This document shows, in pieces, positions 38,197 through 64,000 of a stretch of 64,000 nucleotides of DNA (position 1 is the first letter of the stretch; every line of letters starts with the position of its first letter). The stretch is from an uncultured Bacilli bacterium (GTDB lineage: Bacteria; Bacillota_I; Bacilli_A; RF39; UBA660): NCBI GenBank assembly GCA_934163035.1, contig CAKPJX010000001.1, positions 17,294-81,293 on the forward strand. The letters are read 5' to 3'. The notes below the pieces were generated by a model, which saw only the letters and a program-made list of their open reading frames with translations, had not been told where the DNA came from and made no database searches. A program made the translations under genes and the position numbers.

Positions 38197-38273
38197 TGGT
38201 GTCCCCGGGCAGATTTGAACTGCCGACCTATCGCTTAGGAGGCGATTGCTCTATCCAGCTGAGCTACGAGAAC
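38197..38273 (-). tRNA. tRNA-Arg (anticodon CCU)
   Basis: The 77-nt cloverleaf folds by hand:
- acceptor GTTCTCG/CGGGGAC
- D stem GCTC/GAGC
- anticodon stem ATCGC/GCGAT with loop CTCCTAA
- T arm GGCAG-TTCAAAT-CTGCC
- encoded CCA. Confidence 0.93.
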
Positions 38274-59773: not shown

Positions 59774-59841
59774 AATAATCACCCTCTTCTATTATTATAG
59801 CAAAGTCAAAAGAAAAAAACATCTCTAAAATTAAGAAATGC

Positions 59842-61731
59842 TTATTCATTTGTTTTTTTTACCTTTTGGAAACCATTAACTAAAGTAGTCTCATCACTTT
59901 TATAAATTTTTTCCTTATAAATATCAAGTGCTTTAAGTGTTGCACGCCTAACAGTGCCAACACAAACACCAAACTCATTTGCTACATCTTGATCAGTTAC
60001 AAACTCCCTATCAACAACTTTTAATCTAGCATAAGCTAAAGCAGCCTCTGAAGTAGGCATAAAATCTATCATTTCCGATACAGACATTAACATCGAATTA
60101 AGTAAATCAAATTGTTTACTATCAATCAAATTTAAAGATAAGACTCCATTCATCTCCTCTTCAATAATTGAATCTATTAAAATCCTATCATTATCCATTT
60201 CACTAAATAATACTTGAAGCTCTCCCCTCGAAAGAACTTTATCCGGGTGCTTTTTAATATTTTTTAAAATCTTTCGCATTTTAGGTATGACCTTATACAA
60301 ACGCTCAGACAATGTGCTAGTCCAATTATCATCTTTTTCTGCCCTAGTAAGATCATCCCCATAACGCATTCTTAATAGTTTTCTTTCATTATAAGACAAT
60401 CTAGAAACCATATTATCAACCTGTAATTTTGAAAAAGGAACAAACTGATCATATAAATTCTTAACCTTACCATTATAATAGTCAGCTATATTATTCTTTA
60501 TATTGCCAAAAGCAACACTTTCCCTATATCCTTCTATAGCAGCAAATGCTCTTTCAGGATTATCCATATATAATGTTAAAGAGTTTACATTTGAAGAACA
60601 AATAAATTTAGAAATAGCTTTAGATTCAATCTGCCGAACCCTTTCTTTTGTATATCCCCATTCCTTTCCAATTTCCTCTAACGTATATATTCGGTCAAGA
60701 AAACCAAAGCGTAAAAGCAAGATTTTCCTTTCTTTATCAGTCAGTAAAGTATTATTAAACAATTCATCCGTATCAGCAATCATATTATTATTTTCACTTT
60801 CATCATAAATATCAGAATCACTTGGAACAAACTCTAGTAATTCAACACCATCACGTTCATCAGAAACCATACTATTAAGACTAATAGCATCATCTTTTAA
60901 ACTATTTAAAAGTATTGCCTTTGATACAGATATACCCATATCTTCAGCAATTTCCTCAATCTTAGGTCTTCTACTTAATTTAATACTAAGCTTCTCACTT
61001 ACCCTATTAAATTTTAAAACATTTTCTTGAAGATGAATTGGAACTTTAATATTTCTTGATAATTCATATGAAGCTCTAGAAACAGCTTGCCTAATCCACC
61101 ATGTAGCATAAGTAGAAAACCTGCACCCCATATTTAAATCGAATTTATCTATAGTGTTTATTAACCCAATATTTCCCTCTTGAATTAAATCAAGTAAAGG
61201 AACTCCCTTGTTAGCATATTTTTTAGCAATACTAACAACTAGCCTTAAATTTGAATTTATCAACTTATCTCTAGCAACTTTATCACCAGATTTTGCCCTA
61301 ACTATAAACTCCTCAGTTTCTAAAGTAGAAAGTAGTGGATATTTTGATATTTCTTTAAAATACATTTTAATACTATCAGGAAGATCAGCAATATTATTAG
61401 AATTAGTAACAACAGAATCATTATCAATTTCAATACCATTTTTTAAACAATATCCACTCAATAACATAACTAAAATTTCATCATCAGAATAATAAATATG
61501 TGTTTTCAAAAAATCTCTATTGCTTTTACATAAACACCTGATAAGAGAACATAACTTATTATTGTCCATCAACTTTAAATAATAAGATGAAAAATCTATA
61601 TCAAAATCTCTAAATGAGCTAGTAATCTTTTTAAGCTCAATAATATTATCCTCATAATTATCACTAACACTAACACATTTGTTTAAATAATCATTTAACA
61701 CATCAATAATTTTATCATCAGTAATTGCCAT
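59842..61731 (-). CDS. RpoD/SigA-like sigma-70 factor with a ~245-aa C-terminal extension
   Basis: - Region 1.2-2: MYFKEISKYPLLS...NLRLVVSIAKKY...DLIQEGNIGL...FSTYATWWIRQA.
- Region 3: KVPIHLQENVLKF.
- Region 4: LTDKERKILLLRFGF...EEIGKEWGYTKERVRQIESKAISKF.
- About 245 further residues follow region 4. Confidence 0.85.
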   Translation of the reverse strand: MAITDDKIIDVLNDYLNKCVSVSDNYEDNIIELKKITSSFRDFDIDFSSYYLKLMDNNKLCSLIRCLCKSNRDFLKTHIYYSDDEILVMLLSGYCLKNGIEIDNDSVVTNSNNIADLPDSIKMYFKEISKYPLLSTLETEEFIVRAKSGDKVARDKLINSNLRLVVSIAKKYANKGVPLLDLIQEGNIGLINTIDKFDLNMGCRFSTYATWWIRQAVSRASYELSRNIKVPIHLQENVLKFNRVSEKLSIKLSRRPKIEEIAEDMGISVSKAILLNSLKDDAISLNSMVSDERDGVELLEFVPSDSDIYDESENNNMIADTDELFNNTLLTDKERKILLLRFGFLDRIYTLEEIGKEWGYTKERVRQIESKAISKFICSSNVNSLTLYMDNPERAFAAIEGYRESVAFGNIKNNIADYYNGKVKNLYDQFVPFSKLQVDNMVSRLSYNERKLLRMRYGDDLTRAEKDDNWTSTLSERLYKVIPKMRKILKNIKKHPDKVLSRGELQVLFSEMDNDRILIDSIIEEEMNGVLSLNLIDSKQFDLLNSMLMSVSEMIDFMPTSEAALAYARLKVVDREFVTDQDVANEFGVCVGTVRRATLKALDIYKEKIYKSDETTLVNGFQKVKKTNE

Positions 61732-61746
61732 TAAAATCCCTCCATA

Positions 61747-62052
61747 TCATTTAACCTTTTTTAACATTTTAGATGATAATCCTACAAACTCAGCCAAGTT
61801 TATAACATCATAATTAGAAGAAAGTTTTTTTAAAGCTTTGTTTTTATAATAATATGTATTTTTACAATTATCATCACCTAAAGCTTCTTTTTGCACATCT
61901 TGTTCAAAACCAAAATAACTTAATAAACAAAATCTTTCCTTATCAGTCAAATCAGTCTCAGCAATAATTCTATCAAGTTCTCCAATCAAAAAGTTAGACT
62001 CTACTCTATCAATAACATCCATATCGCCAGGGATATTATCTACTATAGGCAA
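61747..62052 (-). CDS. sigma-70 region 4 fragment (3' part of a frameshifted sigma gene)
   Basis: LTDKERFCLLSYFGF...YYYKNKALKKL. The frame stays open upstream past the stop of the preceding ORF. The track start is a TTG. Confidence 0.6.
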   Translation of the reverse strand: MPIVDNIPGDMDVIDRVESNFLIGELDRIIAETDLTDKERFCLLSYFGFEQDVQKEALGDDNCKNTYYYKNKALKKLSSNYDVINLAEFVGLSSKMLKKVK

Positions 62053-62116
62053 AAAGCCATCATCAGTAGCTATATCAGAATAAGAACTATAATAACTATT
62101 AAAACTTGAATATATA

Positions 62117-62788
62117 CTAATAGCATGATAATTTATTTTTAATAAGCTCCAATTCTTTAGAAGTAATACCTAATATATCACAAGTAACATCATCTTTTAA
62201 TTTTTTACACTCAGACTCGTATTGATAACTAAGTTTTTCATATTTATGAATTAAAGAATGGATATTTAATGGCACGGAAAAAGGATAAGCAACTTCGCCA
62301 TAATATTGATACAAACTATTAATAATACACCTATATGCATAAGTAGAAAACTTCGTTCCTCTAGTAAAATCAAACCTATCTATCGCCTTAATTAAAGCAA
62401 TACCATTAATTTCAAATTCATCATGATAACAATTAAAAAGTTTTTGTAAATCAACACTTTTTAAAACTATTCCCTTGGCCACTGATAAATTAGGATAATA
62501 ACCAATAATATCAAAAAAATGATTAAGAACTTCTGTTAAATTAGAGCCATCATAATTTTGAAACAAATATTCATTAAGAAAATAATTAAATGCTCCACTC
62601 GAAATCAATTTTTCTATATATTCACTGTAACTAACCCAAAGTCTAGAAAAAATATAGCTATTAAAATCTTCACAAGTGCTACTACTAAAATTTTTAGTAA
62701 TAGAATTAACTAATTTAGAAAATTTTCTTTCATTAAATCCAAGATATTCAAACTTATTTTTATAGTATTCTAAATCAATAATCGCCAT
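62117..62788 (-). CDS. sigma-70 region 2/3 fragment (5' part of a frameshifted sigma gene)
   Basis: GIALIKAIDRFDFTRGTKFSTYAYRCIINS (2.2-2.4), VPLNIHSLIHKY and ILGITSKELELI (region 3). It ends at TAG 62117..62119 with no region 4. Confidence 0.6.
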   Translation of the reverse strand: MAIIDLEYYKNKFEYLGFNERKFSKLVNSITKNFSSSTCEDFNSYIFSRLWVSYSEYIEKLISSGAFNYFLNEYLFQNYDGSNLTEVLNHFFDIIGYYPNLSVAKGIVLKSVDLQKLFNCYHDEFEINGIALIKAIDRFDFTRGTKFSTYAYRCIINSLYQYYGEVAYPFSVPLNIHSLIHKYEKLSYQYESECKKLKDDVTCDILGITSKELELIKNKLSCY

Positions 62789-62819
62789 AAAAATCCCCCT
62801 GTCAAAATTACTTATTATA

Positions 62820-63950
62820 TTACCGATTATTTTTTAATTGCTTAACTAACTTTTTTGCACTGAAAGGATATTCACTACAATCAGCCAACAATTCAGCATC
62901 AGAACAGGTAACTAGTTTTTTTAAAGCATTCTTTAAAATTATGTTAATATTTTGCCTAGAAGTACCAAACAAATCACCAATAGCTTGAAGACTAAGAGGT
63001 GAATTACCATAAAAACCAAACCTAAGTCTAACAATTTCTAACTGTTTATTAGTTAATGACTTTTTAAGTATATTATCTATAATTATCCGATTCAAATCAT
63101 CTTCATGTTCTTCAAATATAGAACTATTAGGATCTACAATTAAACTTAAAAAATCATCCGAATCACATTCACCATCTTTAATAATAGGTGCGTCCAAACT
63201 TCTAATATTATAGTAAGCATTATAAATATCATATATTCGCTGAGAACTAACATTAATGCTTTTAGCAATCTCGTCAATTTCTGGCTTTCTACCCAAAGTT
63301 TGTTCTAATTCTATCTCCTGTTTCCTAAATTTACTAATAATCGTCCTGGCATCAACTGGTAACTTAACCTGATTATATTTAGATATAGCCTTACCGATTT
63401 TAGTCTTAATACAATATCCAGCATATGTAGAAAATTTAAACCCTTTAAAAGGATCAAACTTATCAACGGCTTCAACTAAACCAAAATACCCTTCTTGAAA
63501 AAGATCCATTAAAGAAAGAGATGTATAATCACTTACCTTACTTGCAAAATACAGAACAAGTCTATAATTTCTTTCTAAAAATTCTAGTTTACTATCTTCA
63601 TCGCCCGATCTAATCCTTTCAAAATATTGAACTTCTTCTTCCTTAGTAATAGGAGGTCTTTGAGAATTTTTACCTGAAAATATTAGTTTTATTCCATCAT
63701 CATCAAAATCAGAGCCAAAACCATTATAAGCTTCTTTAATAATCTTTTTTTCTGAATCAATAATAGCACTACTGACAAATAATTTTTCAAAAGTTATATT
63801 ACAAAATTTAGTTAAAGAAGGCCTACCCTTTATTTTATCAACTATCAATTTTAAATTATCGCATGACTCAAGCATACCAACATATGAAAAATCATCACCA
63901 TCATAACCTATATCACTTAAAAAATCATCTAATTCATTAATCTTATTCAT
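62820..63950 (-). CDS. sigma-70 family RNA polymerase sigma factor (paralog)
   Basis: - Region 2: NYRLVLYFASK...DLFQEGYFGLVEAVDKFDPFKGFKFSTYA.
- Region 3: KLPVDARTIISKF.
- Region 4: LTNKQLEIVRLRFGF...LQAIGDLFGTSRQNINIILKNALKKL.
- The frame stays open upstream to the window edge and the RBS at 63950 is weak, so the true start may lie beyond 64000. Confidence 0.8.
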   Translation of the reverse strand: MNKINELDDFLSDIGYDGDDFSYVGMLESCDNLKLIVDKIKGRPSLTKFCNITFEKLFVSSAIIDSEKKIIKEAYNGFGSDFDDDGIKLIFSGKNSQRPPITKEEEVQYFERIRSGDEDSKLEFLERNYRLVLYFASKVSDYTSLSLMDLFQEGYFGLVEAVDKFDPFKGFKFSTYAGYCIKTKIGKAISKYNQVKLPVDARTIISKFRKQEIELEQTLGRKPEIDEIAKSINVSSQRIYDIYNAYYNIRSLDAPIIKDGECDSDDFLSLIVDPNSSIFEEHEDDLNRIIIDNILKKSLTNKQLEIVRLRFGFYGNSPLSLQAIGDLFGTSRQNINIILKNALKKLVTCSDAELLADCSEYPFSAKKLVKQLKNNR

Positions 63951-64000
63951 ACATTCACTAATACTAGCTTCCGAAATGTTAAAGGTATCAACTATATTAG

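Follow-up and report, generated by a model that had tools for sequence, protein, structure and literature searches.

A strain-variable array of probably accessory RpoD-like sigma factors between ftsK and deoD in an uncultured Bacilli bacterium

The 64,000-nucleotide (nt) stretch of DNA from an uncultured Bacilli bacterium that was analysed here (contig CAKPJX010000001.1, positions 17,294 to 81,293; hereafter the window) contains at its far end a tandem array of sigma-70 family genes, encoded on the minus strand between ftsK and deoD. The original prediction described three tandem sigma genes at this place. The three reading frames are where it put them, but the array consists of four genes, and the first of those inside the window is cut by its end. 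The missing part is provided by L005, a 116-kb ENA scaffold that is identical to the window across the region and reaches 7.7 kb further. We refer to the intact genes by the length of their products in amino acids (s498, s454, s629), and to the decayed one as the middle type. The features of the locus are the following, with positions in the window unless L005 is named:

L005 6071-7567, plus strand in that locus, which corresponds to the minus strand of the window: s498 sigma gene (498 amino acids, aa), beyond the window end.
62820..64000, minus strand: s454-type sigma gene, of which the 3' 393 codons are in the window, with Pfam regions 2, 3 and 4.
61747..62788, minus strand: middle-type sigma pseudogene, made of two open reading frames (ORFs; 62117-62788 and 61747-62052), from three-frame translation.
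59842..61731, minus strand: s629-type sigma gene, intact, with Pfam regions 1.2, 2, 3 and 4.
61378..61731, minus strand: N-terminal domain of s629 (aa 1-118), a shortened version of the family N-domain, from alignments to the latter.
60592..61377, minus strand: sigma core of s629 (aa 119-380), regions 1.2 to 4.2, from Pfam, motifs and Foldseek.
59845..60591, minus strand: C-terminal extension of s629 (aa 381-629), from module alignment and a weak Sigma70_r4 match.
59783..59841, minus strand: right border of the island, with a conserved hairpin, then a T-run, the deoD promoter and its ribosome-binding site, from junction comparison.

The gene order is ftsK, s498, s454, pseudogene, s629, deoD, M16, M16, lepA and onwards, and the genes are tightly packed. 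The true s454 ORF has 454 aa, starts 184 nt past the window end (L005 7548-8912) and overlaps s498 by 20 nt. The following spacers measure 31 and 15 nt (the second had been given as 14), and the ribosome-binding sites expected there are present as GGGGGA and GGAGGG. The deoD gene begins 59-68 nt after s629, in agreement with the predicted distance of about 60 nt, and is followed by two M16 peptidase genes, lepA, and further genes. The hairpin and T-run of the right border read CATTTCTTAATTTTAGAGATGTTTTTTT. On the other side, L005 carries, upstream of s498, ftsK, a hypothetical gene, efp, and rpmG. In Firmicutes, sigA typically adjoins dnaG, and the latter had been envisaged ahead of the cluster beyond position 64000; what is found there, after the fourth sigma gene, is ftsK. 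No dnaG adjoins the array among the upstream genes of L005, the ORFs of the window themselves not having been scanned for it. There is no further sigma gene within the 64-kb window and, as had been noted together with the apparent operon of several RpoD-like paralogues, no anti-sigma gene is in view around the array. The window has 26-31% GC, with most genes on the minus strand, and the GC content of the array is that of the genome. Scans with Rfam and for tRNAs revealed no RNA gene near the array; the sole RNA gene found by Rfam and ARAGORN in the 64 kb is a tRNA-Arg (CCT) at 38197-38273 on the minus strand.

Sigma regions 2, 3, and 4 had been claimed for all three genes of the window. Pfam identifies them in two. 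The s629 protein (59842-61731) matches regions 1.2, 2, 3, and 4 with E-values of 4e-5 to 6e-19, and the scores of regions 2, 3, and 4 (65.3, 43.0, and 67.7 bits) are above the gathering score. The frame at 62820-63950 matches regions 2, 3, and 4 with E-values of 1e-8 to 8e-12, and here too the scores (45.3, 35.0, and 38.3 bits for the in-window part of s454) exceed the gathering score. The middle copy matches only a partial region 2 (62117-62788, 32.7 bits), and its second ORF (61747-62052) has no match in Pfam or NCBIfam models. Its state of decay, already suspected from a frameshift, can be described precisely. Frame 0 stops at 62117, where the next frame is open across the junction, and deletion of one base anywhere in 62117-62137 gives a 346-aa product, i.e., the frameshift is of 1 nt. 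When compared with intact orthologues of 443 aa (haplotype C, see below) and 435 aa (haplotype D), the pseudogene also has an in-frame deletion of 82 aa at ~62430, which has removed the linker, region 1.2, and regions 2.1/2.2, and with the latter the part that binds the core polymerase. The split is identical in three independent assemblies. Decay has also affected other copies of the array: in haplotype C, an apparent 480-nt gap after ftsK (L012 1315-1794) is composed of fragments of the start, middle, and end of a 498-type gene, and reads as the deletion remnant of such a gene. A further candidate pseudogene, s454 in L008, was traced to the assembly, which has a scaffold gap filled with Ns at this place.

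The N-termini of the sigma factors had been regarded as different and unrelated, which is not what we find. The s498 and s454 proteins are 37% identical over their full length, N-terminus included, s629 aligns to both starting inside the N-terminal region, and the N-termini of all four types fit one N-terminal domain profile. This N-domain has no Pfam match, and it could not be assigned to a divergent region 1.1, given a probability of 0.6% in hhalign against the region 1.1 profile and no match to PF03979. No region 1.1 (PF03979) is detectable in the array copies, while the SigA proteins of two relatives (L129 and L103, see below) do match it. In the AlphaFold2 model of s454 (mean predicted local distance difference test score, pLDDT, of 75), the N-domain is all-helical with a pLDDT of 80-94. 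Foldseek searches with full-length models returned only sigma chains, with SigA and SigS holoenzyme chains at the top, and none of them assigned a fold to the N- or C-terminal domain. A search of the N-domain profile (A8) against 1.84 billion representative proteins gave 791 clusters at 50% identity, 397 of them with E<=1e-10. It recovered s454 itself (P0126, 133.8 bits) as well as D-type, F-type, and s629-type alleles. The domain is at the N-terminus in 150 of 150 proteins among the matches listed, and all 10 sampled proteins (444-1262 aa) have a sigma core of regions 2, 3, and 4. The family is present in 29 species of GTDB, always on the chromosome and always in uncultured gut metagenome-assembled genomes (MAGs), the hosts of which are labelled Bacilli, Tenericutes, Mycoplasmatota, Erysipelotrichaceae, or Candidatus Faecisoma. 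These comparisons show that, at the level of sequence, all array copies belong to one lineage-specific RpoD-like sigma family with its own helical N-domain in place of region 1.1.

The original prediction had missed the extension of about 250 aa at the C-terminus of the 629-aa protein. It includes one module of ~70 aa (RYGDDL...IPKMRK) and a terminal sigma-4-like helix-turn-helix. Other family members carry one to five copies of the module (RYGDDL...IPKIKK), where s629 has one, and the s629 architecture recurs in long sigmas (698-1016 aa). No such extension is present in the s498, s454, and middle types. Its match to Sigma70_r4 is weak in s629 (20.9 bits for a cut-off of 24.1), and the terminal module of a homologue (P0006) scores 34.6 bits against the same cut-off. 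One protein from the N-domain profile search (P0292, 1190 aa) has TPR/BTAD-like repeats after the sigma core in place of the usual modules, and on this ground the C-terminal extension is best described as a variable add-on across the family. We found no description in the literature of the N-domain family, of repeated sigma-4-like C-terminal modules, or of a strain-hypervariable RpoD-like array; tandem sigma genes and primary-like paralogues are already known as kinds.

The copies differ in the residues expected to contact promoters. The motifs of s629 are near-canonical, with YATWWIRQ (alleles YATWWIRQ/H) and, in region 4.2, TKERVRQIE. Those of the s498, s454, and middle types have diverged (YAAYWIKC and YAGYCIKT; VQRIGQ and RQNINI), such that the -10 and -35 contact residues of s498 and s454 are strongly changed, and region 4.2 of the middle type is truncated. 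Variation extends to the alleles of s629, which differ in region 2.4 (Q to H) and in region 3.0 (VH..E to VN..F or VS..E). The motifs of regions 2.1/2.2 are kept in the three intact copies. By its motifs and scores, s629 is the most RpoD-like copy, and RpoD is its best NCBIfam match (PRK09210), at 253.6 bits for a cut-off of 572; the in-window part of s454 reaches 141.9 bits against the same model. None of the array copies could be identified as SigA, as all NCBIfam equivalog scores are far under the cut-offs. The sporulation factors SigE, SigF, SigG, and SigK were rejected as well: their models score 20-125 bits for cut-offs of 230-460 (the best being 79-124 vs 234-457). This agrees with the earlier view that the locus is not an ordinary SigA accompanied by a sporulation sigma in conserved synteny.

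The comparison of strains places the array in a different light from a housekeeping locus. We found six arrangements of the ftsK-deoD interval, most of them seen in at least two independent samples or assemblers, which are given here from ftsK to deoD with the genes denoted by protein length:

Haplotype A (the window): 498, 454, pseudogene, 629.
Haplotype B: 498, 470, 634, then a VWA/Flg_new module.
Haplotype C: remnants of a 498-type gene, 443, 631.
Haplotype D: 471, 435; no s629 type.
Haplotype E (sister species): empty.
Haplotype F: 470, 630, on a contig that begins within the array, at a partial ORF.

The interval is a hypervariable island with two to four copies per haplotype. Three of the four haplotype A genes are intact in every haplotype A assembly. 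The flanking genes are 93-99% identical in DNA between strains, and the FtsK, DeoD, and M16 proteins are 96-99% identical among haplotypes A to D, whereas the sigma orthologues have 54-65% protein identity between haplotypes (59-64% for the s629-type alleles), with the exception of s498, which is 96% identical between A and B. In the comparison of A with B, DNA identity is ~99% across ftsK and the 5' part of s498, falling to 93%, 85%, and ~60% through s454; it is 67-78% across s629 and returns to 98% exactly at deoD, a profile that identifies the region as a recombination mosaic. Rates of non-synonymous (dN) and synonymous (dS) substitution differ accordingly between the two compartments: the flanks have dN of 0.000-0.018, dS of 0.05-0.34, and a dN/dS ratio (omega) of 0.00-0.10, and the sigma alleles have dN of 0.24-0.36, dS of 0.54-0.78, and omega of 0.30-0.51. 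Region 2 is the most constrained (omega of 0.13-0.42), and constraint is weakest in region 3, region 4, and the N-domain. Since there are two to four genes per haplotype, copies have been deleted or have decayed, and alleles exceed the background divergence, the data show, as far as sequences can, a birth-and-death evolution of the locus together with recombinational replacement of alleles. All four s629-type clusters present in a collection of 5.8 billion proteins are located in this array.

In the sister species (L102, the GTDB representative), the flanks are 87-94% identical and DeoD 95%, and there is no sigma gene at the site: ftsK is followed by ~100 nt and deoD. The only element in this spacer is the hairpin and T-run that ends the array in the other haplotypes. 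The public MAGs nearest to this low-GC gut bacterium are labelled Bacilli, Tenericutes, and Mycoplasma. The closest LepA matches, at 75% identity, are from MAGs with the labels 'uncultured Mycoplasma sp.' and 'Bacilli bacterium', and in the relatives whose LepA is 63-75% identical, lepA is not preceded by a sigma array. The implication of the original prediction, that a sigA heads a string of housekeeping genes here, is not supported by these comparisons, given an array that is absent from this site in the sister species, varies by strain, and has ~40% protein divergence against 1-4% for its flanks. Where, then, is the primary sigma factor? Two relatives encode both a canonical sigA and members of the family. 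In L129, the order is dnaG, sigA (369 aa, regions 1.1 to 4), trmK, and three family sigmas (871, 587, and 404 aa); L103 encodes dnaG-sigA (358 aa) and one long family sigma. Between L129 and L131, SigA is 100% identical over the 219 residues compared and TrmK, Fur, Rbr, and LytR are 90-98% identical, while the family paralogues reach 81% and 67% identity, with one of them missing. By this comparison, a true primary sigma of the clade stays unchanged where the paralogues of the family turn over, and s629 behaves like the latter. Because the L129 paralogues lie directly downstream of dnaG-sigA-trmK, the array presumably descends from SigA, and the arrangement suggests that the family arose by tandem duplication of sigA.

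Some observations on these and other genomes deserve mention. The family arrays placed straight after dnaG-sigA-trmK (L129 1452-10773, with 871-587-404 aa; L131 8-5268, with 861-401 aa), which are from uncultured gut Bacilli, also show changes in copy number and rapid divergence. The family member of L103 (2842-4859) is split into an ORF of 186 aa (N-domain and region 1.2) and one of 483 aa (regions 2-4 and extension), a split that may reflect a frameshift, a pseudogene, or misassembly. One protein considered as the canonical SigA of this species, P0024, belongs to a different, Spo0A-bearing organism. In an unrelated gut bacterium encoding Spo0A (L132 4815-7116, and L133-L138), a tandem pair of RpoD-like genes (369 and 371 aa, both without a region 1.1 match) directly precedes the S10 ribosomal-protein operon, and this arrangement recurs in seven samples.

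Taken together, these results make it probable that the ftsK-deoD locus is a cassette array of accessory alternative sigma factors, which varies from strain to strain. The copies are most likely accessory and rapidly turning over, rather than the housekeeping SigA, and a canonical dnaG-sigA most likely lies elsewhere in the genome of this species, judging from its strains and relatives. Haplotype D holds only strongly diverged types, so that its primary sigma must be sought elsewhere, and s629 is probably not a housekeeping factor, as its alleles are ~40% divergent, haplotype D lacks its type, and the sister species has no part of the array at this site. The original prediction had seen its own reading endangered by a genuine sigA elsewhere in the genome accompanied by prophage or plasmid sigma genes here; the former is likely, but the copies are not genes of a prophage or plasmid. 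The heteromeric arrangement that it had also suggested finds no support here.

The array would work as follows. It would be transcribed as one unit from a SigA-type promoter just past the ftsK terminator, where a promoter-like TTGAAT, 17 nt, and TGnTATTAT follow the terminator hairpin and are conserved in haplotypes A to D. A single transcription unit is probable because of this promoter after ftsK, the 20-nt overlap and 15-31-nt gaps between genes, and the lack of predicted internal terminators, a terminator scan having returned none inside the array. The intact products (498, 454, and 629 aa) would then compete with the housekeeping SigA for core RNA polymerase, which is expected since regions 2.1/2.2, the part that binds it, are still recognisable. 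As the residues that read the -10, extended -10, and -35 elements differ, the intact sigmas would be expected to direct the polymerase to different sets of promoters: s629 would read near-canonical ones, and s498 and s454 ones with altered -10 and -35 elements. The N-domain, which occupies the position of region 1.1, and the additional sigma-4-like modules may gate the binding of DNA or of the core.

A number of points weigh against this interpretation. The promoter scan of the array gives no more sites than shuffled sequence, and the operon structure, promoter, and expression are all inferred. The accessory status comes from the comparison with strains and relatives, no canonical sigA having been retrieved from this species. 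The s629 protein keeps near-canonical RpoD motifs, most typical members of the long family are encoded by a single gene per fetched locus, and haplotype D could hold an s629-type gene elsewhere. Estimates of dS are imprecise at ~60% protein identity in a genome of 27% GC. Finally, we identified no regulon, signal, or partner protein for the array.

How do other explanations fare against these data? One could regard s629 as the primary housekeeping sigma in a lineage-specific long form, with the upstream genes as alternative sigmas produced by tandem duplication. It is indeed the most RpoD-like copy, with RpoD as best NCBIfam match, a region 1.2, YATWWIRQ, and KERVRQIE in region 4.2; its gene heads a string of housekeeping genes, and the cores of distant long-family members are fully canonical, with no other sigma gene in the fetched loci. 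Yet a primary sigma would hardly have alleles that are only 59-64% identical next to flank proteins at 96-99%, with variable -10 and extended -10 contacts, nor lack a detectable region 1.1, nor score 253.6 for an RpoD equivalog cut-off of 572. Its type is missing from haplotype D and the whole array from the sister species, L129 and L103 have a canonical dnaG-sigA as well as family members, and SigA of L129 and L131 is 100% identical where compared when the paralogues are not. We consider this explanation quite improbable. The same divergence could be regarded instead as the mark of a conflict locus under diversifying or balancing selection, in which the sigmas escape phage anti-sigma or hijacking proteins, or serve as decoys or triggers. 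The dN of the sigma genes is 15-50x the flank value, omega is 0.3-0.5 overall and 0.6-0.8 in region 4 and the N-domain, and presence/absence and allele polymorphisms occur within near-identical backgrounds, a pattern repeated in the second array of other genomes (L129/L131); the MZA system is a precedent of a defence system containing a sigma. Against this, no defence, toxin, or phage genes adjoin the array, the MzaA match is limited to the sigma core (230 bits for a cut-off of 800), and nothing larger than an 18-codon linker has omega >1. The increase in dS, by 2-7 fold, fits the recombinational import of old or foreign alleles without positive selection, and pseudogenes are equally indicative of relaxed constraint. 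A conflict locus is unlikely, if less so than a housekeeping s629. Selection also enters a related proposal, that of a 'regulatory serotype' locus, where divergent sigma alleles with different promoter specificities are kept by balancing or diversifying selection. Such selection might come from phage proteins by which sigma factors are targeted or hijacked, or from the strain-specific control of surface proteins and adhesins, as encoded by the neighbouring VWA/Flg_new operon. We put it forward tentatively, as an unlikely account.

If relaxed constraint were the whole explanation, the copies would be redundant duplicates drifting to loss with no distinct function. The dead middle copy, the presence in haplotype C of only fragments of the 498-type, the zero copies of the sister species, and an omega that is high for a sigma factor all go in this direction. 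But three of the four haplotype A genes are intact in all assemblies, the orthologous types are intact despite ~40% divergence, omega is well under 1 and lowest (0.13-0.42) in the core-binding region 2, and a large family is kept in hundreds of lineages, which makes simple drift very unlikely. Even harder to credit is an origin of the array as cargo, brought in between ftsK and deoD by a prophage, a plasmid, or some other mobile element. The array does represent, relative to the sister species, a 5.9-kb insertion with sharp borders, and haplotype B has an insertion sequence copy (rve) ~7 kb upstream of the array. Yet there is no integrase, transposase, repeat, or tRNA at the array borders, the GC content of the array is that of the genome, and the family is chromosomal in 29 species. 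No close relative was found in 50,697 phage records or in 2.9 million viral contigs, the latter giving no match; the matches in phage records have at most 43% identity and are confined to the core, except for one that covers 81% of s454 at 28.6% identity. The exception is in record MT835471.1 (89 kb, 'Bacteriophage sp.', human faeces), which has two sigma-like places at ~86.8-87.9 kb, one of them aligning to that part of s454, including part of the N-domain region. This record may be a bacterial contig filed as phage.

The reading of the locus as an array of accessory sigmas can be placed among systems that are already known. The Group 2 sigmas (cyanobacterial SigB-E, Streptomyces HrdA-D, RpoS) resemble the array in their RpoD-like domains from region 1.2 to 4.2 and, probably, in being several paralogues that exist beside a primary sigma and are apparently dispensable, a trait that for the array is suggested by haplotypes D and E, L129, and L103. 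In promoter-recognition motifs the picture is mixed, s629 being near-canonical and the canonical contact residues having been lost from the s498, s454, and middle types. Unlike Group 2, the array sigmas have a family-specific N-domain of ~120-200 aa without detectable region 1.1, s629 has sigma-4-like modules after region 4, the genes are in tandem, and there is extreme allelic divergence with changes in copy number within the species. The nearest family by sequence for s629 is SigA/RpoD of Firmicutes and Mollicutes, from which the array differs by scores under the equivalog cut-off, the lack of region 1.1 and of a dnaG neighbour, the lack of conservation among strains, and its absence from this site in the sister species. 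Neighbouring genes of the sigma-70 family, or duplicated paralogues, also occur in the spoIIGA-sigE-sigG and Clostridium thermocellum sigI-rsgI sets. These clusters of Bacillus and Clostridium encode group 3/4-like factors with dedicated pro-sequence proteases or anti-sigma partners in conserved synteny. The array factors, in contrast, are RpoD-like and without a partner gene, in a locus that is not conserved. MzaA, of the MZA anti-phage system, is also a long member of the sigma-70 family; its C-terminal core is RpoD-like, and it occurs in accessory loci. The array proteins match only this core (model positions 428-677 of 683 with PADLOC, 465-716 of 726 with NCBIfam), lack its N-terminal region (430 aa), and have no partner component as neighbour. 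The MZA system was therefore rejected as an identity for the array, the match being restricted to the core and the neighbours being housekeeping genes with none that resembles a partner.

One other element of the region is mobile in appearance. A surface-protein module, encoding a VWA protein of 1126 aa and a Flg_new/SpaA protein of 687 aa (L005 1-2114 vs L098 13860-19303), lies upstream of rpmG in haplotype A and between the sigma array and deoD in haplotype B, where copies of CATT(T)CTTAATTTT flank it. The 8 kb around the same site in the sister species lack the module, which may be a second mobile cassette linked to the array.

Our analysis points to a large family of sigma factors (~400-800 clusters at 50% identity) that has no Pfam or NCBIfam match outside the sigma core and is abundant in uncultured lineages of the human and animal gut, with a new N-domain and, in many members, additional sigma-4-like modules. 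Annotation pipelines may call these genes RpoD, with the risk of assigning the wrong housekeeping sigma to a genome. Sigma factors are normally among the most conserved regulators of a genome. It is unusual that RpoD-like ones should behave like a variable antigen or a defence island, with ~40% divergent alleles, zero to four copies, and frequent decay within a near-identical backbone. If they do form a regulatory serotype, conspecific strains would run partly different transcription programmes from one swappable cassette. The pattern suggests that promoter specificity itself may be a trait that varies at the level of the strain in gut bacteria with reduced genomes.

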